The position numbers and the translations under genes are program-made. From Candidatus Doudnabacteria bacterium (GTDB lineage: Bacteria > Patescibacteriota > Doudnabacteria > UBA920 > 2-01-FULL-50-11): 26,690 nt of DNA. Where the stretch lies: positions 1 to 26,690 of the forward strand of contig JACQJK010000008.1 of assembly GCA_016205055.1 (NCBI GenBank), written 5' to 3'. The notes under the pieces were generated by a model. That model was given only the letters and a program-made list of their open reading frames with translations, searched no databases and had not been told where the DNA came from. This document shows positions 4,432 to 25,829 of the stretch, piece by piece (position 1 is the first letter of the stretch; each line of letters starts with the position of its first letter).

Positions 4432-5286
4432 TTACCCATGGGGGTCTAAACGTCTCTTGTGTTTTAACCGGTATGCCGAAAGTAAGTTCCTAAATAACAT
4501 GGCCACTGTTAATGGCCCTACGCCGCCTGGAACGGGAGCATAATAACTGGCAACCTTTTCCACACTTTCTCGATCGGCGTCTCCGACTATGTTCCCGCCG
4601 GATTCGGAGGTGCCTGCGTCAATGACAATCGCTCCGGGTTTCAAGATTTGGCCAGTTACCAGTTTTGGCTGTCCTGCTGCCAGCACTACAACGTCCGCTT
4701 GCTTTAAAATTTGTTCCATATTCGGCGTGGCGCGATCTAAACTCTTTACATTCCAGCCCTTTTTTCGGATTAAATGCCGCACCGGTCTGCCCACAAGCTC
4801 TCCTTGGCCCAAGATCACGAATGTTTTAAAAGAAAAATCAACTGGCAATTGCGACAAGATATGCATGACCGCGGCTGCCGCGGGCGGGATATACCGAGGC
4901 GAGCCCGAGTAAAAAGCCGATAAGTTTTCAGAACCAATGCAATCCACGTCAATCATTGCTGGAATAGCTCCTAACACTTTCGCTTTATCAATGCTTGCAG
5001 GAAGGGGTAACTGCACAATCAGTCCGCAAAGCGAATCGTTCTTTTGCAATCTTTTCAGCAAATCAAGCACTTCGGAAGTCTTGGAATGTTTGGATAATTG
5101 TTCCAAACGAAAGCCAATACCGATACTAACTGCGGTTTTCTCCTTAACGCGGACATAAGATAAAGTTACGGGGTCGTCCCCTACTACCAAGTCGACCAAA
5201 AGCGGAGTTGAGCTAAAAGTCGAAATTGCGCGTCGGAACTCCTCTAACAATGTATCTGCAAGTTTGCGACCGTCAATGAGACTCAT
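4432..5286 (-). CDS. folD: Bifunctional methylenetetrahydrofolate dehydrogenase/cyclohydrolase
   Basis: IDGRKLA start, YVRVKEK, GLIVQLPLP, ILGQGELVGRP, VIDAG, APVPGGVGPLTVAMLFRN. Confidence 0.95.
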   Translation of the reverse strand: MSLIDGRKLADTLLEEFRRAISTFSSTPLLVDLVVGDDPVTLSYVRVKEKTAVSIGIGFRLEQLSKHSKTSEVLDLLKRLQKNDSLCGLIVQLPLPASIDKAKVLGAIPAMIDVDCIGSENLSAFYSGSPRYIPPAAAAVMHILSQLPVDFSFKTFVILGQGELVGRPVRHLIRKKGWNVKSLDRATPNMEQILKQADVVVLAAGQPKLVTGQILKPGAIVIDAGTSESGGNIVGDADRESVEKVASYYAPVPGGVGPLTVAMLFRNLLSAYRLKHKRRLDPHG

Positions 5287-18793: not shown

Positions 18794-20089
18794 ATGCGCA
18801 AGAAATATCGCTTCAGCATCCTGGCCGCGATTATCCTGGCTTTTTTGATTATTTCCCCCTGGGCAATATCTTTTGCATTTGGATACATCTTCGAGTTTAA
18901 AAATTTCTCTTTCAAAAAAACCGGCACCTTGATCGTCCGCACCTTGCCCAAAGGGGCTCGAGTAATTATTAACGACCGGCCGACTTCTCACTTCACGCCT
19001 GCCACCGTGCGCCTGCTTTTACCCGGAGCATACCGGATTCGCTTGGAAAAAGACGGTTTTCTGACCTGGCAAAAAAGCGTCAATATTTTGCCGGGACAAG
19101 TCACTTTCCTGCCCGAAGGCGGCTCTGATATTTCTCTGTTTTTATCAGCCGGTTCCGCCGAAATCATCTCCACCGACACTCTAACCTTGATTGGAACCCT
19201 TCAAGATCAATGGGCCATCACCGCTACTTCAACCTTTGCACTTAAAAAGCTGAGCGAACCGCGAAACTTTCAAATTGACTTTCCAGCGCAAAACTTAGCA
19301 AAACCAAGCTTTCAAATTACTCCCGACGGTGAGTGGTTATTTATTTACGACGAAGGCAAGTTCAAAAGAGCCGGAAATATCTCCGCAAAAACCGTCATAG
19401 AAACCCGAGACCTGCCCAAAGGAACCGTAAACGCTTTGCCGTGGAAAAAAAACCAGATGCTGATAGAACTTGCTGACAAAAATCTGTTTTTTTGGTCGCC
19501 CGAGACCTTAAAATTTTTCAGGAAAGCGCCCCAATCCTACGCCGTGTCCGCGGACGAATTTTTGTTCCTGGAAAACGGCAATGTCTATTCACTGGACCGA
19601 GCCAGTTCGACTCTCGAGCTAATTTTCACGGACCTGCACAACTTCCCCGACCCAAAACTCTTTCCGACAAGATCGGCCGGCCTGCTCGGGTTATCCGGCA
19701 AACGGCTTTTCCAACTTACCCCACAGTTACGCCGGTTGCCGGGCGAAAGCATCGAAACCGTGACTTGGCACGAGCAATCAAAAACTCTGCTCTACGCTTC
19801 CCCTAATGAAATCTGGTTTGACAAAGCCAACCTGGGCGGTGGACCCGAGATAATCGTGCGCGCAAGCGACGCCCTGAAAAAACCCGTCTATGCTGACGCT
19901 TTACAGCAGATTGTGTTTTTGCAAGACAGTAAGATCAAAGCCGTAGAACTCTACGGACCTGCTCCCCGCAACATCACCACGCTTGTGGAAAGCGAAACGC
20001 CAATCACCGATTTCCTGCTCGACCCCCAAGCGCGGATTATCTACTTCCTGCAAGCAAACGGGGATCTTTTGTCGAAAAAAATCAGATAG
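18794..20089 (+). CDS. Membrane-anchored PEGA-domain protein with a probable beta-rich/propeller C-terminus
   Basis: N-terminal TM helix, then GTLIVRTLPKGARVIIND...TPATV..LLPGAYRIRLEKDGFLTWQKSVNILPGQVT (PEGA pattern). Only + strand gene; its 3' end overlaps that of rnhA by 8 nt. Confidence 0.8.
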   Translation: MRKKYRFSILAAIILAFLIISPWAISFAFGYIFEFKNFSFKKTGTLIVRTLPKGARVIINDRPTSHFTPATVRLLLPGAYRIRLEKDGFLTWQKSVNILPGQVTFLPEGGSDISLFLSAGSAEIISTDTLTLIGTLQDQWAITATSTFALKKLSEPRNFQIDFPAQNLAKPSFQITPDGEWLFIYDEGKFKRAGNISAKTVIETRDLPKGTVNALPWKKNQMLIELADKNLFFWSPETLKFFRKAPQSYAVSADEFLFLENGNVYSLDRASSTLELIFTDLHNFPDPKLFPTRSAGLLGLSGKRLFQLTPQLRRLPGESIETVTWHEQSKTLLYASPNEIWFDKANLGGGPEIIVRASDALKKPVYADALQQIVFLQDSKIKAVELYGPAPRNITTLVESETPITDFLLDPQARIIYFLQANGDLLSKKIR

Positions 20090-20504
20090 ACGGCTTTTGT
20101 CGTTGCAAACCCTCGTCTATCGCTTGATTGACCAGTTGATCAGCGAGCGCGTTTTGCGAACGCGGAACGTGAACAAAATTTAGTTGCACGAACTGCCGAG
20201 TTAGCGCCAGCGCTTTCGCCGCACGGTCAGCGATACTGCCGCTTTTAATTTTGTAACGGCCGGTCAGCTGTCGGACAATCAGTTCAGAATCAAGTTTGAG
20301 CGTGACCTTATCCGCGCCCAGCTCTTTGGCTTTTTGCAGCGCAACGATTACCGCCTCGTACTCGGCTTGGTTGTTGGTTAAATTCCCCAGGTATCCTTTT
20401 ATCTCGAGTACCAATTTGCCGTTGTGGTCATAAACCGCCGCGCCAAACCCAGCCGGGCCGGGATTACCGCGCGCTCCGCCGTCGGTAAAAATTGTAACTT
20501 TCAT
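20082..20504 (-). CDS. rnhA: Ribonuclease HI (archaeal-like/Bacillus-type RNase HI subfamily)
   Basis: FTDGGARGNPGPAG, TNNQAEYEA, LDSELIVRQLTGRYKIK, HVPRSQNALADQLVN. Confidence 0.93.
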   Translation of the reverse strand: MKVTIFTDGGARGNPGPAGFGAAVYDHNGKLVLEIKGYLGNLTNNQAEYEAVIVALQKAKELGADKVTLKLDSELIVRQLTGRYKIKSGSIADRAAKALALTRQFVQLNFVHVPRSQNALADQLVNQAIDEGLQRQKPSI

Positions 20505-20528
20505 GCAAATCTAATCCAAGCCATCAAG

Positions 20529-22310
20529 TTACGCGGAAGTCTTTCTTAAATCTCTAATTTTCAACTGCACGCGCCTTAGGCCGTTCCAATGGTTATGCGA
20601 GGGCTCGACCACGACTTCCAGATTTTCCCCGGGAGCAAGCCGGAGGCCTTCTTGGGCCTTGCCAAAACCGATAAATTCATAAACCCGGTCGTTTTTTGTG
20701 GCCTGCAGTTTCAAATGTTTTCCGGTTGCGCCCACCAAGCGAGTTTGCTCCAAGGTCAAATCCTGCAGCAAAACCGTAACCGGCGGATTGTCGGGACCGA
20801 ACGGCTCAAAATTTTTCAATTCCTCAAGCAACGCGTCAGTAATCTGCTCCGGCTCTGCTATGAAATCAACAAACTCCTGCCGCGAAAAATCCGACTCGGC
20901 CAGTTCGCGGCCGGCTGTAGCATCAATGTGGTTATGGAAGTCGTCTAAAAACTCGTTTTTCAAAGTTAAACCGGCCGCAGCAGCGTGCCCGCCGAATCGC
21001 TCCAAATACTTTTGGGCGCCGGATAATGCCTTGACAATATTAAAACTTCCCCACGACCGGGCCGAGCCAGTAGCCACCTCCGCTCCTTTTTCCAAAACAA
21101 TCGCCGGCCGCTGATAATTTTCCACCAAGCGGGCCGCGACCAAACCCACTACTCCTCTGGGCCAGCCGACGCCCGCCGCCAAAAGCACCTTTCTGTCTTG
21201 CTGGCCTTCCGCGATTGACTTGGCTTCGGAAAGAATCTGTTCGGTCAAGCGCTGTCGGTGCAAATTTAAACTTTCCACCTGCCCGGCATACATGGCGGCC
21301 TCGGTCGGATTGTCCGTTGCTAACAAGCGGAAAGCGATGTCGGCGTGCTGGATGCGTCCGGCCGCGTTAATACGGGGCGCAATGATAAACCCGACGGAAT
21401 AACTGTCAAAATTTGCATATTCGCTGATTCCGGCGTTTTTGACAATTTCCCATAAACCCGGCCACTTGGTTTTTCCAATGACCGAAAGACCGTATTTTAC
21501 CAAAATGCGATTTTCCCCCATCAAGCTTTGGCAGTCGGCGATCGTGCCGATCGCCACTAAATCCAAAAGCCATTTCTCCCAGCCGGGAACTATGCGCGCC
21601 CGCGCGTGCCCAAGAAAAGCAGAAAGTTTTTTTGATCCGATTTCCGGAATTTTCCAGCCGTACATCCCTTGATACTCGGATGAGTAAATTAAGGCAATAA
21701 GCGCTTGCACTAACTTGAAAGCAACCCCCACCCCGGTCAGTCCTGCAAGCACCGGTAAATCGTCAAGTTTAGGATTAATCACGGACGAGGCAGGCGGTAA
21801 ATTCCCTAAAATGTAGTGGTGGTCGGTGACAATCACGTCAACCCCCAAAGAGTTGGCAAAAATTACTTCGTCAAGCGCGTTAATGCCGCAATCCACCGTC
21901 ACGATCAAGCGCGTTCCGCGGTCAGCTATAGATTTAATCGCCTCCTGGTTCAAACCATAGCCCTCGTCGAACCGATCGGGAATGTACCAGTCGATTCGCG
22001 CGCCGAGTTTTGACAAAAACCGGTATAACACGACGCAAGCGGTGACTGCGTCCGCGTCATAATCGGCATAAATCGTTATCTTTTCCTGGTCGGCGATTGC
22101 ACTAAGTAATCGGGCAGCGGAAATCTGCATTCCGCTCATCGCAAACGGGGAAATTAACCGCTCGTATTGGGGATTGAGAAAATAATCCTGCTCACTCTCG
22201 CTTGTTAAGCCGCGATTGAACAATAGTTGCAAAATAACCCGATCGTGGTCGGGAAATTTTTTGATTAGCTCATCGCTGATTTTTTCTTTAACAATCCATT
22301 TGCGCTTCAT
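20529..22310 (-). CDS. recJ: Single-stranded-DNA-specific exonuclease RecJ
   Basis: YADYDAD, PDRFDEGYG, VTVDCG, VTDHH (DHH), APRINAAGR, GSARS, GGHAAAAG (DHHA1), C-terminal OB region. ATGA overlap with korB. Confidence 0.96.
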   Translation of the reverse strand: MKRKWIVKEKISDELIKKFPDHDRVILQLLFNRGLTSESEQDYFLNPQYERLISPFAMSGMQISAARLLSAIADQEKITIYADYDADAVTACVVLYRFLSKLGARIDWYIPDRFDEGYGLNQEAIKSIADRGTRLIVTVDCGINALDEVIFANSLGVDVIVTDHHYILGNLPPASSVINPKLDDLPVLAGLTGVGVAFKLVQALIALIYSSEYQGMYGWKIPEIGSKKLSAFLGHARARIVPGWEKWLLDLVAIGTIADCQSLMGENRILVKYGLSVIGKTKWPGLWEIVKNAGISEYANFDSYSVGFIIAPRINAAGRIQHADIAFRLLATDNPTEAAMYAGQVESLNLHRQRLTEQILSEAKSIAEGQQDRKVLLAAGVGWPRGVVGLVAARLVENYQRPAIVLEKGAEVATGSARSWGSFNIVKALSGAQKYLERFGGHAAAAGLTLKNEFLDDFHNHIDATAGRELAESDFSRQEFVDFIAEPEQITDALLEELKNFEPFGPDNPPVTVLLQDLTLEQTRLVGATGKHLKLQATKNDRVYEFIGFGKAQEGLRLAPGENLEVVVEPSHNHWNGLRRVQLKIRDLRKTSA

Positions 22311-23194
22311 TGGTACTTTTCGAGCAAGGATGAAATGTCAAGTTTGCTTAAATCATGCTTCACAAGCGGGGTTTTGGAAATTTGCGGATAATTATCCTCC
22401 AAAATCAAACGGTCTTCTTCGTACAATATACCAACGGCAATCTTCTGATCAAGGGGCTCTTGGGTCACCTCCCAGGCCTTGAAGCGATTGTCGGGCGCGT
22501 ATCCTTTATCCTCAAGTTTGTAAACCCGTTTGCGGTACCAATCATAGGACATTTCCGGATTAAAGGTCGGGCACGGCTGCATGACGTCAATAAACGAAAA
22601 CCCCCGATGCCACACGCCTTTGACGATCAAATCAGTCAGGTGCGGAATGTCGCCGGCAAAGCCGCGGGCGACGAACGTTCCGCCGGCTGAAACCGCAAGC
22701 GCCGTAGGGTTTAACTGAAACTCATTATAGCCGTCGGGGTGGGCTTTGCCTTTAAATCCTTTCATGGAAGTCGGGGACGACTGTCCCACGGTCAAGGAAT
22801 AAACGTGGTTGTCGTGCACGATATAGGTAAGGTTAACATTGGACCGAATCGTCTGAATCGTGTGGCTTAAGCCCTCGGCAAACCCGTCGCCGTCGCCGCC
22901 GATAACGATCACGTTCAGCTCGTGATTGGCAAGTTTGGCGCCCACCGCGGCCGGCAAAGCGCGGCCGTGGAGCGAGTGAAAAATGTTGGCCTTAACAAAG
23001 CTGGCAAAATTACCCGAACAGCCGATGCCAAAAACCAAAACTGTCTGGTGCGGCGCCAGGTTCAATTTCACCAGGGCGTTTTTGAGCGCGGCCCAAATGG
23101 CAAAATCGCCGCAGCCCGGGCACCAGGTGGGGAAGACTTCCGAGTTAAAATCGTCAGCGCGCAAAGGGTTAGTAAGGTCGGGATTAGAGAGCAT
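22307..23194 (-). CDS. korB: 2-oxoacid:ferredoxin oxidoreductase beta subunit (TPP-binding)
   Basis: TWCPGCGDF, GIGCSG, HSLHGRALP, GGDGDG...DN TPP motif, QPCPTFN. Start placed at ATG 23194: the ORF-track start at 23254 is a TTG inside repeat copy A. Confidence 0.92.
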   Translation of the reverse strand: MLSNPDLTNPLRADDFNSEVFPTWCPGCGDFAIWAALKNALVKLNLAPHQTVLVFGIGCSGNFASFVKANIFHSLHGRALPAAVGAKLANHELNVIVIGGDGDGFAEGLSHTIQTIRSNVNLTYIVHDNHVYSLTVGQSSPTSMKGFKGKAHPDGYNEFQLNPTALAVSAGGTFVARGFAGDIPHLTDLIVKGVWHRGFSFIDVMQPCPTFNPEMSYDWYRKRVYKLEDKGYAPDNRFKAWEVTQEPLDQKIAVGILYEEDRLILEDNYPQISKTPLVKHDLSKLDISSLLEKYQ

Positions 23195-23221
23195 GATACT
23201 CTTTAATGAAAGAATTCTATA

Positions 23222-23270
23222 CCCTCTCCATATACGGAGAGGGGGTCCGCCCAAGGCGGACAGGTGGGGT
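23222..23270 (-). repeat. Palindromic repeat, copy A
   Basis: Minus strand: ACCCCACCT GTCCGCC-TTG-GGCGGAC C CCCTCTCC-GTATAT-GGAGAGGG. Begins at the stop codon of the small membrane-protein gene. Confidence 0.8.
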
Positions 23271-23605
23271 TAATTTTGACTTTTATCCGCCGCAGCGAAT
23301 GAATTTTGATTTCTGTACTTACCCCACCTCACCAGACTCAAAACTAATAAGACCGTCAAAAAACTTAGTGAAGACCAAAAAAGAAAATTGAGCAAATACG
23401 CTTTCTCATCAAATACCTGGGCGGAAAAAGCAATTTTAAATGGCCAGCCGGTAAATCTGCATATGGCTAATTCGTGTCCCGGGAACGAACAGTAAAAAGC
23501 AGTTTCAAAACCAACATAACGATTAATTGAGAATCCTGTTATCGACCCCATTACCACACTCCACCCCACCACATGCTTTTTTGTTTTGAGACTAAAGATT
23601 TTCAT
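23270..23605 (-). CDS. Hypothetical small membrane protein (two predicted TM segments)
   Basis: 111 aa ORF, ATG 9 nt after the hairpin of repeat B. Hydrophobic segments near both ends, GWPF and LLNFLFW motifs. Fills the gap between repeats B and A exactly. Confidence 0.7.
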   Translation of the reverse strand: MKIFSLKTKKHVVGWSVVMGSITGFSINRYVGFETAFYCSFPGHELAICRFTGWPFKIAFSAQVFDEKAYLLNFLFWSSLSFLTVLLVLSLVRWGKYRNQNSFAAADKSQN

Positions 23606-23613
23606 ACAATTTT

Positions 23614-23650
23614 TCCCTCTCCTGTCGAGGAGAGGGATTAAGGATGAGGT
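23614..23650 (-). repeat. Palindromic repeat, copy B (no small hairpin)
   Basis: Minus strand: ACCTCATCC TTAA TCCCTCTCCT-CGAC-AGGAGAGGGA (10-bp stem). Head starts 1 nt after the DUF559 stop. Confidence 0.85.
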
Positions 23651-23651
23651 T

Positions 23652-24005
23652 TTATGAAACGGCGCCCTCTATCGCCTCCAAAACCCCCTCAAAATTACTA
23701 TCCAGCTCGTTATTCCACACTCTTAGGAGATCACATCCTTCGACATCGCGTAAATAATTTTCCCTGTGTCGATCTCGACTCTTAATTCCCTCTTCGTTGT
23801 GATGACCACCATCAAGCTCGATTATAAGACGCTTTTCCGGGCAATAAAAATCAACGATGTAATTTCCCATTCTGGCTTGCCGCTTGAATCTAAGTCCGAG
23901 AAACCTCCTATCTCTTAAAGCCTGCCACAATTTAATCTCCCAAGGCGTCCCTTTTCTTCTCAATGCTCTTGAAAGCTTAATGAATTGTTGAGGAACTTTT
24001 TTCAT
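23652..24005 (-). CDS. DUF559-family (Vsr-like, PD-(D/E)xK fold) putative endonuclease
   Basis: Matches the family pattern throughout: SRALRRKGTPWEIKLWQALR, GLRFKRQ, GNYIVDFYC, LIIELDGGHH, LLRVWNNE, EGVLEAI. 117 aa. Confidence 0.9.
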   Translation of the reverse strand: MKKVPQQFIKLSRALRRKGTPWEIKLWQALRDRRFLGLRFKRQARMGNYIVDFYCPEKRLIIELDGGHHNEEGIKSRDRHRENYLRDVEGCDLLRVWNNELDSNFEGVLEAIEGAVS

Positions 24006-24048
24006 ACCTCATCCGTCCTTCGGACACCTTCTCCTCGTCAGGAGAAGG
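24006..24048 (+). repeat. Palindromic repeat, copy C
   Basis: Plus strand: ACCTCATCC GTCC-TTC-GGAC A CCTTCTCCT-CGTC-AGGAGAAGG. Abuts the DUF559 ATG and fills 43 of the 48 nt up to the korA stop. Confidence 0.88.
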
Positions 24049-24053
24049 CGGAT

Positions 24054-25829
24054 TTATCCTAAAATATTTTTCACTTTCTCAACTATCTCTTCCGGCCAGA
24101 ACGGTCGGCCGTCGTACTTGCGCAAGTGATGACCTGGAATGATTCCTGTCTGCTGGCGAATTAATCCTTCGAACTGCCCCGAAAAATTATTTTCAACCAC
24201 TAACAACTGCTTGGCTTCCTCCAGTATCATAACCGCTCGGGGCGTGGGAAACGGCCAGACATAATTAAAATGCAGAAAATTGACACTTGAAGTTTCTCCA
24301 CCCTCATCCGGCCTCCGGCCACCTTCTCCCGTCGAGGGAGAAGGAAATAGAGAAAGGTCTGCTAAGGCCTGTAAAATCGGCCCTTTGGTCGAGCCCCAGG
24401 AAACGATCGTTAAGTCAGCTTGATCCGGGCCGTATAACTTAGGATCAGGGATTTGCAACAAAGCATTGTCCAACTTCCGCATGCGCTTTTGCATCTGCGC
24501 GTTGCGATTGGCGACATCCTCGACGTTATAACCGTATTCGTCGTGTTCATCGGAATTGGCCAAGTGTACTCCCCCTTCGGTCCCCGGCAGAGCGCGCGGG
24601 GAAACTCCCGATTCGGTAACTTTGTAGCGTAAATACTTTCCCTGCTTTTTAATGTCCTCTGCCGTCACCCATTCACCTCGATCGATTTGAACTTTTGCTT
24701 GATCGAATACTGGCACGGTTTTTCCGCCTTCGGCCAGGTTTTTATCCGAAAGCAAAAATACCGGCATTTGATATTTTTCCGCCCAATTAAACGCCTCGGC
24801 CGTTAAATAAAAACACTCTTCCTGATCCCCTGGCGCAATGATCATTCTGGGAAACTCATCTTGCGCCGCGTGCATCAAAAACCGCAAATCGGCTTGTCCC
24901 GACCAGGTGGGCAGTCCCGTCGCCGGGCCGGGACGCTGGCCCATAAAAATCACTACCGGCGTTTCGGTAATGCCGGATAACCCTAAGGCCTCCGTCATCA
25001 AAGAAAATCCGCCGCCGCTGGTGCCAACCATGCTCCGCGTGCCCATCCAGCCGGCGCCTATTGCCGAGTTGAGTACCGCAATCTCGTCCTCCGGCTGGCG
25101 CACGATCATGCCGAATTTCGGTCCGTTTTTGGCGACAAACTCTAACAACGACGAGGAAGGCGTCATGGGATAACCGAAATAAGCGCGGCAACCGGCTGCG
25201 ATCGCCCCCATGCCCACGGCTTCGTTGCCGGTGACGTAAATTTGCTCGCGTGGAGGGCGATTTTCGACTTTATATGCAAACGGATTTTTAAAATTCTTCT
25301 TCGCAAAATCATAACCGGCGCTTCCTGCCTTTAAATTCATGTCAATCACCGGCTGCCCTTTGCTGCCGAAAGTTTCCCTAAGCAACGACAACAGGCCTTC
25401 GATATTCGCTCCCAAGACGGCAAGCAGAGCGCCCAAGGCCACGGTATTTTTCATCAATTCCGAGCCGCCAACGTCGCGGGTAATCTGGGAAAACGGCACG
25501 GCGAAAAGCGTAAACTTAGCATTTGCATTTTTAACCTTACCCGGATCGTAAATGATCCCGGCGTCTTTGGACAACTCGGGCTGGTGTTCGTCAAAAGTCT
25601 GCTGGTTTAACGCCACCAGCAAATTCACCGGCCGGATATGATGATGGACTTTTTCGCCAATTGTGATTTCAAAAGTATTGTGCCCGCCGCGGATTAAAGA
25701 AGGATATTCGGTATAATCGAACACCTGGTACCCCATGCGAGAAAAAATTTTTCCCAGCATGGATCCGGCAACTTTGATTCCGAAACCGGCCTCTCCGCCG
25801 ATTTTAATTGTCACCAAGCGCTCCGACAT
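24054..25829 (-). CDS. korA: 2-oxoacid:ferredoxin oxidoreductase alpha subunit (fused gamma-alpha type)
   Basis: GGEAGFGIKVAG, SLIRGGHN, VTGNEA, GYPMTPSS, EDEIA, SGGGFSLMTE, QRPGPATGLPT, VSWGSTKG, VVENNFSGQF. Contains a repeat-derived in-frame insert. Confidence 0.94.
   Translation of the reverse strand: MSERLVTIKIGGEAGFGIKVAGSMLGKIFSRMGYQVFDYTEYPSLIRGGHNTFEITIGEKVHHHIRPVNLLVALNQQTFDEHQPELSKDAGIIYDPGKVKNANAKFTLFAVPFSQITRDVGGSELMKNTVALGALLAVLGANIEGLLSLLRETFGSKGQPVIDMNLKAGSAGYDFAKKNFKNPFAYKVENRPPREQIYVTGNEAVGMGAIAAGCRAYFGYPMTPSSSLLEFVAKNGPKFGMIVRQPEDEIAVLNSAIGAGWMGTRSMVGTSGGGFSLMTEALGLSGITETPVVIFMGQRPGPATGLPTWSGQADLRFLMHAAQDEFPRMIIAPGDQEECFYLTAEAFNWAEKYQMPVFLLSDKNLAEGGKTVPVFDQAKVQIDRGEWVTAEDIKKQGKYLRYKVTESGVSPRALPGTEGGVHLANSDEHDEYGYNVEDVANRNAQMQKRMRKLDNALLQIPDPKLYGPDQADLTIVSWGSTKGPILQALADLSLFPSPSTGEGGRRPDEGGETSSVNFLHFNYVWPFPTPRAVMILEEAKQLLVVENNFSGQFEGLIRQQTGIIPGHHLRKYDGRPFWPEEIVEKVKNILG
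24301..24344 (+). repeat. Palindromic repeat, copy D, in frame inside korA
   Basis: Plus strand: CCCTCATCC GGCC-TCC-GGCC A CCTTCTCCC-GTCGA-GGGAGAAGG. Its complement encodes PSPSTGEGGRRPDEG (korA aa 496-510). Confidence 0.88.

Follow-up and report, generated by a model that had tools for sequence, protein, structure and literature searches.

The korA gene and its additional in-frame segment

The window analysed in this study, a stretch of 26,690 nucleotides (nt) covering positions 1 to 26,690 of contig JACQJK010000008.1 (assembly GCA_016205055.1), originates from a Candidatus Doudnabacteria bacterium and contains a short repeat unit, termed copy D, in frame within the gene korA. The host genome (G000) is a metagenome-assembled genome (MAG) of the Patescibacteria with 0.79 Mb on 127 contigs and a completeness of 89.8%. 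The korA gene (24054..25829, minus strand) is intact and encodes the alpha subunit of a 2-oxoacid:ferredoxin oxidoreductase (OFOR) of 591 amino acids (aa). The gene product contains the Pfam domains POR (aa 15–174) and POR_N (aa 208–446) and the C-terminus typed as domain II, and korB is located nearby. Residues 4–588 were aligned to the alpha subunit of the 2-oxoglutarate:ferredoxin oxidoreductase of Magnetococcus (PDB 6n2n_A, E 2.9e-87), and all of the 66 invariant columns in an alignment of 60 sequences are kept.

Compared with homologues, which show a gap at this site, korA carries an extra segment of 57 nt or 19 codons (LFPSPSTGEGGRRPDEGGE, aa about 494–512; 24295..24351, minus strand). 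This segment comprises the conserved 44-nt repeat unit of copy D (24301..24344, minus strand), delimited by the loose ends of other contigs, and 13 further bases. The minus-strand open reading frame (ORF) of korA reads ...WGSTKGPILQALADLSLFPSPSTGEGGRRPDEGGETSSVNFLHFNYVWPFP... and the corresponding peptide in KorA is ...ILQALADLSLFPSPSTGEGGRRPDEGGETSSVNFLHF..., so that the position, the frame and the peptide proposed for copy D in an initial inspection of the letters alone (the sequence-only reading) were all recovered. The extent was placed at 15 aa (496–510) in that reading; this peptide is present, but the extra segment relative to the homologues is longer, 19 aa.

On the sense strand of korA, copy D starts with a pyrimidine (Y) arm CCTTCTCCC, followed by the loop TCGAC, a purine (R) arm GGGAGAAGG, a single T, a small hairpin GGCC-GGA-GGCC, and a third domain of the reverse-Hoogsteen type, GGATGAGGG. 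The plus strand (24302–24344) was read as CCTCATCCG-GCC-TCC-GGC-CACCTTCTCCC-GTCGA-GGGAGAAGG. As single-stranded DNA, the unit forms two hairpins, of 9 and 4 bp, with fold z-scores of −3.0 and −3.2 for the two strands in ViennaRNA, which takes only Watson–Crick hairpins into account. The same layout and orientation was found in copy C (24007..24052, pattern match on the plus strand), which is located between the korA stop (24054) and the start of a DUF559 endonuclease gene (24005) and folds with a z-score of −5.0. Copies C and D are the only matches in the window to a common 28-nt pattern with three free positions, for which none was expected from 100 shuffles, and also the only matches to the long-hairpin pattern. 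The kinship of the two copies, which the sequence-only reading had noticed, was thereby borne out.

Five of the six reading frames of copy D are open. Runs composed of pyrimidines or of purines only are necessarily free of stop codons in every frame and encode Pro, Ser, Leu, and Phe or Gly, Glu, Arg, and Lys, respectively. Genome-wide, open frames were found for 72% of the repeats versus 61% of random segments, which makes this a minor factor.

In an AlphaFold2 model of KorA based on the 60-sequence alignment, the mean predicted local distance difference test (pLDDT) was 90 and the predicted template modelling score 0.91. Only two segments, 302–308 and 495–511, had a pLDDT below 50. The second of these is part of a coil (492–515) between a helix (479–491) and a strand (516–521), and the HMMER alignment to 6n2n_A places a gap at the same site, between the end of the helix (…AMQRL) and the strand (LKVKAMY). 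In the model, the insert site thus corresponds to the first helix-to-strand turn of domain II, in agreement with the earlier proposal of an insertion into a loop of the C-terminal domain that left the frame intact. The variable length of this loop, its hydrophilic composition and the low model confidence suggest that it is exposed at the surface. The insert is probably read as a disordered loop of Pro, Ser, Gly, and charged residues, and two predicted tryptic peptides of KorA cover it (GPILQALADLSLFPSPSTGEGGR and RPDEGGETSSVNFLHFNYVWPFPTPR). Most likely, the enzyme is unaffected and the insert is a tolerated passenger.

Assembly of the korA region

The stretch is present in three groundwater metagenome runs (X1–X3). 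These runs are possibly the source of the MAG itself and are treated here as an independent assembly, not as an independent sample. Two Logan contigs bridge copy D without any difference, one from X1 (record 6, 24024–24534) and one from X3 (record 21, 24239–24697), and both extend at least 60 nt to either side of it. The depth was increased 10- to 100-fold in the bin that holds copy D (24236–24356), and the loose ends of other contigs begin exactly at positions 24301 and 24344; near-identical copies must therefore occur elsewhere in the community, with 24301–24344 as the shared unit. None of the contigs from X1–X3 skips the insert. In X2, one contig lacks a single base at 24333 (depth 8.5 of 53), which most likely stems from another repeat copy in the community rather than from a korA allele with a frameshift.

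Absence of the segment from KorA homologues

A gap of about 19 aa was found at the insert site in 10 of the 14 closest KorA homologues (61–74% identity), in line with the 15–20 aa that the sequence-only reading had predicted. In these ten, the loop has eight residues (LEELSxxS) versus 27 in the KorA studied here. The 19-aa gap is also present in the family-level genomes G001, G002, and G004, and all 63 readable KorA loops on metagenome contigs of relatives are short and free of such an insert. Among the 88 readable sequences of the best 120 homologues, triplex-type inserts (see below) or, in P0003, a degenerate insert were detected in only five proteins, all of the close clade, and P0090 and P0098 carry an unrelated 15-aa extension at the same loop. 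The only close KorA match with a lineage name is assigned to Doudnabacteria.

The insert affects automated annotation. In precomputed domain lists for P0001–P0015, PF17147 (PFOR_II) is called in all 10 insert-less KorA proteins of the close clade and is missing from all five that carry an insert; the presence of the repeat is sufficient to break this call. In practice, such inserts can disrupt Pfam domain calls and seed spurious low-complexity peptides in annotations.

An intein or intron was ruled out by the size of 57 nt, the lack of catalytic blocks and the in-frame read-through. The flanks TTTCTC and GAGAAA were checked as possible terminal repeats of a miniature inverted-repeat transposable element; they are complementary and partly host codons, and no empty site is available for comparison.

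Other in-frame copies in the genome

Pfam searches of the open frames covering hairpins in G000 revealed at least 12 further in-frame copies in nine other conserved genes; a search for other domesticated copies had been proposed in the sequence-only reading. Several lie inside a domain: at aa 62 of SecA (SecA_DEAD, 14–437), at aa 307 and 320 of a PGA_cap protein (80–350), at aa 105 of Sua5 (29–215), and at aa 418 of DNA polymerase I (polA), within the 3'-5' exonuclease domain. A second copy in polA, at aa 137, splits 5_3_exonuc_N into two stretches. In a class I aminoacyl-tRNA synthetase, the copy is found within the gene at aa 608, and tRNA-synt_1 is matched in two stretches. In transaldolase, with copies at aa 248 and 313, the profile of 285 positions is spread over 347 residues. 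The copy in UvrC (aa 173) is located between GIY-YIG and UVR, and that in YchF (aa 217) between two Pfam domains.

Comparison of SecA with PDB structures gave no clean gap, the copy being located in the variable N-terminal part before the start of the alignment. In YchF (L013, G000:C107:87-1163), the copy encodes the peptide HNAPHPPLNLRGGEGE (aa about 208–232), and the Thermus homologue 2dby_A is longer in this part. Not every in-frame copy is therefore a plain insertion, and "in-frame copy" is the safe wording.

With these genes, sibling repeats occur in about ten housekeeping genes of a single 0.79-Mb genome, where they are predicted to be translated, while their E. coli kin have been called strictly intergenic.

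Classification of the repeat

Class II intrastrand triplex motifs consist of a pyrimidine domain, a purine domain and a reverse-Hoogsteen domain, in this order (Holder et al., 2015, PMC4666352). The consensus of the E. coli elements (TMECO) is CCCTCNCCC N3-6 GGGNGAGGG N3 GGGNGAGGG, and the second loop is often TTA (PMC4666352). In the same work, TMECO was examined by CD, NMR and melting. Copy D possesses the pyrimidine/purine hairpin with a perfect 9-bp stem (CCTTCTCCC / GGGAGAAGG) and a 5-nt loop, and its third domain GGATGAGGG mirrors GGGAGAAGG in 9 of 9 positions. It differs from the E. coli elements in the sequence of its arms (CCTTCTCCC / GGGAGAAGG / GGATGAGGG versus CCCTCNCCC...GGGNGAGGG...GGGNGAGGG), all three domains departing from the consensus, and in its second loop. 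The latter measures 12 nt and contains a covarying 4-bp hairpin, which is beyond both loop limits of published searches as quoted in PMC4666352 (0–10 nt, Hoyne et al., 2000; 1–6 nt, ITxF). In E. coli, TMECO is always intergenic, and its function and a link to mobile elements are described as unknown (PMC4666352); copy D lies in the korA frame. For BoxC and PIT elements, the same paper refers to Bachellier et al. and to Hoyne et al. (2000). The resemblance to the BoxC/PIT/TMECO group lies in how the three domains are arranged along a single strand, the G/C-rich arms of 8–9 nt, and the many dispersed copies in many phyla with no known enzyme or function. By its layout, copy D is thus classed as a triplex-type repeat of this group with an extra hairpin in the second loop.

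Other copies in G000 carry the TTA second loop of TMECO type A and are closer to the consensus. This subfamily, CCCTCCCC-loop-GGGGAGGG-TTA-GGGAGGGG (C44:2431, C94:2253, C118:62, C86:8925, and C73:3983), is very near to type A, and its G-rich strand fits the canonical four-run G-quadruplex pattern. Several of its copies are located at contig ends, so that the repeats probably break the assembly.

The whole genome was scanned for exact hairpins with pyrimidine-rich and purine-rich arms (≥85% C/T), which yielded 78 loci with arms of mostly 8–12 bp and, in many cases, a C-rich "head" on one side. Read from the opposite strand, this head forms a G-rich domain that is located 3' to the purine arm and mirrors it. 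Scored by purine-motif rules (G opposite G; A or T opposite A), the third domain matched the mirrored arm at 9/9 positions in copies D and C, 9/10 in copy B, and 6/8 in copy A (copies A and B are described in the last section). Among the perfect hairpins of the genome, 27 of 33 had a mirror domain with at most one mismatch versus 17 of 33 in the direct-repeat control, and the mean mirror match was 0.93, whereas the direct control reached 0.82 and shuffled sequences 0.79. An earlier test on the C-rich strand, in which T opposite A was disallowed, had given a weak signal (0.84 vs. 0.74 in shuffles). The support for the mirror domain is collective and does not apply to each locus individually.

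In-frame palindromic repeats are already known from Rickettsia, and the sequence-only reading had referred to them as a precedent. For these Rickettsia palindromic elements (RPEs), PMC10969869 gives, after Ogata et al. (2000), a length of about 150 bp, ten Rickettsia families (RPE-1 to RPE-10) and a conserved encoded peptide. Like RPEs as described there, the repeats in G000 are gene-less palindromes that occur between genes as well as in frame in unrelated conserved genes, namely in korA and within or between the Pfam domains of the nine other genes, where they are read as extra peptide. The 44-nt unit, its triplex-motif layout and its distribution across phyla set copy D apart from the RPEs as they are described there.

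A further resemblance concerns the REP/REPIN-RAYT systems, in which short dispersed hairpins occur and inverted copies bracket a small enzyme gene. REP elements are extragenic by definition. The bracketed gene in the window encodes a Vsr-like nuclease of the DUF559 family and not a Y1 transposase, and no match to the Y1/RAYT transposase family (PF01797) was obtained in G000, which is 89.8% complete. A search of positions 23200–24600 against Rfam at a permissive threshold gave chance-level matches only (best E 0.3), and no curated RNA family fits.

Occurrence of the composite repeat in other phyla

The pattern shared by copies C and D, CCTCATCCG-NCC-NNC-GGN-CACCTTCTCC, was searched with one genome per species; at least 120 genomes contain it without deviation at any of the 24 specified bases. 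Among the matches listed, the hosts include Xanthomonas, Stenotrophomonas, Rhizobium, Legionella, Pseudomonas, Planctomycetota, Acidobacteriota, Bacteroidales, Armatimonadota, Bifidobacteriaceae, and other Patescibacteria. Of 85 copies, 52 have C-G at the one free pair of this hairpin, 29 have G-C, one has T-A, one has T-G, and two lack pairing at this position, so that the variation is clearly compensatory. The loop of the long hairpin varies in length and sequence, and an exact GGAGAAGG arm is present at a distance of at most 40 nt in 71 of the 85 copies. Judged from these pattern matches, the repeat represents a pan-bacterial BoxC/PIT-like family and is not specific to one genome. As far as searched, the composite form, with its covarying hairpin in the second loop and its near-invariance across phyla, is new compared with PMC4666352 and PMC10969869, and a literature search for the sequence strings of the repeat found them in no paper.

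The composite repeat is a non-coding 44-mer that is conserved across very distant phyla. A few of the cross-phylum copies are located inside long open frames with a recognizable protein context, as read by eye from motifs. In L036, FPSPFGEGGRRPDE precedes an ABC-type VSFQY motif, and in an Mpl-like frame of Stenotrophomonas (L094), the copy follows GFLIGGV..DFGVSARLG.

Variation of the KorA loop in related lineages

Besides the KorA studied here, extra sequence at the same loop was found in P0003, P0004, P0006, and P0007. The inserts of the latter three are triplex-type and, as in copy D, carry the G-rich third domain on the sense strand; their arm sequences are wholly different. In L003 (P0006), the insert reads TCTCCCCCT-GCCGG-AGGGGGAGA-TAA-AGATGGGGT and in L011 (P0007) CCCCTCCTT-TAC-AAGGAGGGG-CTA-GGGGAGGTG, each with a mirror match of 8/9. 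In L010 (P0004), inspection by eye revealed a nested segment enclosed by an imperfect stem, followed by the small hairpin GCCC-GAA-GGGC and GGGAGGGG; the exact-stem scan detected no hairpin. The insert of L009 (P0003) is degenerate and without a hairpin. The 3' junction is identical in L010 and L011, which suggests for this pair a single event with subsequent internal remodelling.

In a maximum-likelihood tree of KorA calculated with the insert masked, the insert-less P0008 is nested inside the group of P0003 and P0006 (support 100/99 and 99/95), the insert-less P0012 stands beside P0004 and P0007, and P0001 is placed without resolution among insert-less sequences. The insert-bearing KorA proteins are therefore not monophyletic. 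Within G003, three siblings of the insert hairpin were found elsewhere in the genome, two of them with a near-identical loop. The CCTTCTCC type of G000 occurs in this genome only as copies C and D, and in G001, which is 99% complete and has no insert, neither of the two hairpin types searched for is present. In the two genomes where this could be checked (G000 and G003), each insert thus resembles the repeats of its own genome. Repeated insertion or local conversion is therefore favoured over the view that one old insert was passively inherited. Different triplex-type repeats occupy the KorA loop in at least three lineages that are not monophyletic, which indicates a history of more than one simple insertion. 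As far as searched, both the translation of a triplex-type repeat inside conserved genes and the repeated occupation of one protein loop are new compared with the papers cited above.

Association with DUF559 nuclease genes

The intergenic copies in the window bracket a gene for a DUF559 (Vsr-like) endonuclease (23652..24005, minus strand; PF04480, E 7.8e-33), which lies between copies C and B, the repeats falling within 23609–24052. Of the five DUF559 genes in G000, four are directly flanked by such hairpins, three of these on both sides. Apart from the window gene, these are the genes on C90 (52–375; hairpins 21–44 and 451–474) and C77 (4491–4778; hairpins 4447–4468 and 4839–4859) and the gene on C92 (158–469), which has a hairpin after it (481–503). 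A literature search returned nothing that joins "triplex" with "DUF559". The flanking of DUF559 genes by repeat copies names a candidate enzyme for the abundant BoxC/PIT/TMECO repeats, which have been without a known spreading mechanism since the 1990s.

Copy D is solo and is not accompanied by a nuclease gene. This is consistent with the earlier claim that the repeat family moves independently of the nuclease; the claim itself is an inference from the solo position of copy D.

Origin of the segment in korA

Taken together, the results make it probable that copy D represents a short DNA repeat without a gene, which was incorporated into korA and is translated with it, and the interpretation given in the sequence-only reading is supported. 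The repeat would spread at the DNA level, possibly helped by the DUF559 nuclease whose genes it flanks. Copies that arrive in genes would persist only if their length is a multiple of three, if they bring no stop codon and if the site tolerates a flexible loop. Copy D would have joined korA in the helix–strand loop of domain II, adding 57 nt and leaving the frame open.

Several observations weigh against this interpretation or limit it. Read-through and activity of KorA are inferred from the sequence. No empty-site allele and no relative with more than 74% identity was found among 5.8 billion proteins, the JGI metagenome contigs and the source runs. At its base, the KorA tree forms a polytomy, which does not fix the number and direction of the events; it would also be compatible with an insertion of greater age that was lost again in some lineages, or with turnover through gene conversion. 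In YchF, the repeat stands in place of a longer native stretch, as judged from the alignment to 2dby_A. The low sequence complexity of the repeats inflates the mirror controls, with shuffles already matching 79%. Among 80 repeat loci from other genomes, only one has a DUF559 gene within 150 nt; the link to the nuclease is therefore weak for solo copies and rests on the cassette copies.

That the segment is an artefact of assembly or binning, or that korA is a decaying pseudogene, is hardly credible. The MAG is indeed fragmented, contigs often end at such repeats, and the same repeat in other organisms causes the depth spike at 24236–24356. However, two contigs of different runs cross copy D without a difference, which also answers the concern about a misassembly raised in the sequence-only reading, and a pseudogene is at odds with the full-length ORF, the retention of every family-invariant residue, the intact korB, and a model that is confident outside the loop. 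A single old insertion in the ancestor of the clade, kept as a useful hairpin or protein loop and lost again in the insert-less relatives, is improbable. Possible uses would be pausing of transcription or translation between the domains, or a recombination or binding site. Five lineages with an insert at the same loop would fit this explanation, as would the common orientation and triplex layout of copy D and three others, the perfect 9-bp stems in three of these four, the identical 3' junction of L010 and L011, and the lack of decay in copy D. It is difficult to reconcile with the interleaving of insert-bearing and insert-less sequences, the latter all having the exact 8-residue loop of the clade, and with arms that are entirely different among lineages but match repeats elsewhere in the same genome in G000 and G003. 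The degenerate, hairpin-free insert of L009 and the 99% complete G001 without the insert or the hairpins searched for also argue against this explanation, and PIT elements are reported to have shown neither promoter nor terminator activity in E. coli (PMC4666352).

The loop could also be a targeted hot spot, at which a sequence- or structure-specific enzyme, with the adjacent DUF559 nuclease as a candidate, repeatedly inserts or converts repeats, copy D being a by-product of the cassette. We regard this as rather unlikely. Copy D lies 295 nt from its nearest sibling, copy C, which forms one end of a DUF559 cassette and has the same orientation; the hairpins at four of five DUF559 genes, the repeated events at one loop and the extra genes in the korA–korB spacer at four of the five insert-bearing korA loci point in the same direction. 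On the other hand, L009 has the insert without cargo in the spacer, L005 has cargo without the insert, and none of the spacers at the other loci encodes DUF559. The nuclease is only a candidate with no known activity or target, and the non-repeat extensions of P0090 and P0098 fit a loop that is merely permissive. With about the same doubt, a broader scheme may be considered in which triplex repeats and DUF559 nucleases form one pan-bacterial mobile system, the nuclease made by the cassettes spreading gene-less copies to recurrent sites including the domain II loop of KorA. If true, such a system would generally supply proteins of small-genome bacteria with new surface loops and would give the missing enzyme partner to a class of repeats that has been unexplained since the 1990s.

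Further copies and neighbouring genes

Copy B (23609..23650, minus strand; hairpin) is inverted, lacks the small hairpin and follows directly after the stop of the DUF559 gene, with a fold z-score of −4.0. Copy A (23218..23273, minus strand; hairpin scan) is located upstream of korB and consists of the head, a small hairpin GTCCGCC/GGCGGAC and a long hairpin. The korB gene (22307..23194, minus strand) encodes the beta subunit, is intact and contains TPP_enzyme_C and PFO_beta_C. Its start is most likely the ATG at 23194 and not the listed TTG at 23254, because the 295-aa alignment to relatives begins at 23194. Read from this ATG, the gene has 296 codons including the stop (MLSNPDLTNPL...), and copy A is therefore predicted to be intergenic, while the TTG start would run through it.

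The spacer between korA and korB (23194–24054 in the window, 860 nt) contains two reading frames, each bounded by repeat copies: the DUF559 gene and an ORF of 111 aa whose family is unknown. The content of this slot varies within the clade: korA directly adjoins korB in L002, L004, and L009 and is separated from it in L003 (974–1495), L005 (3207–4281), L010 (5416–6237), and L011 (5758–6499). The spacer of L003 has a NUDIX-like ORF (motif read by eye), and those of L010 and L011 contain reverse-strand ORFs of 171 and 151 aa, respectively, without a Pfam family. Downstream of korB (20082–22310), genes for a RecJ-like exonuclease (DHH, DHHA1, RecJ_OB) and a 140-aa RNase H / RVT_3 protein were found.

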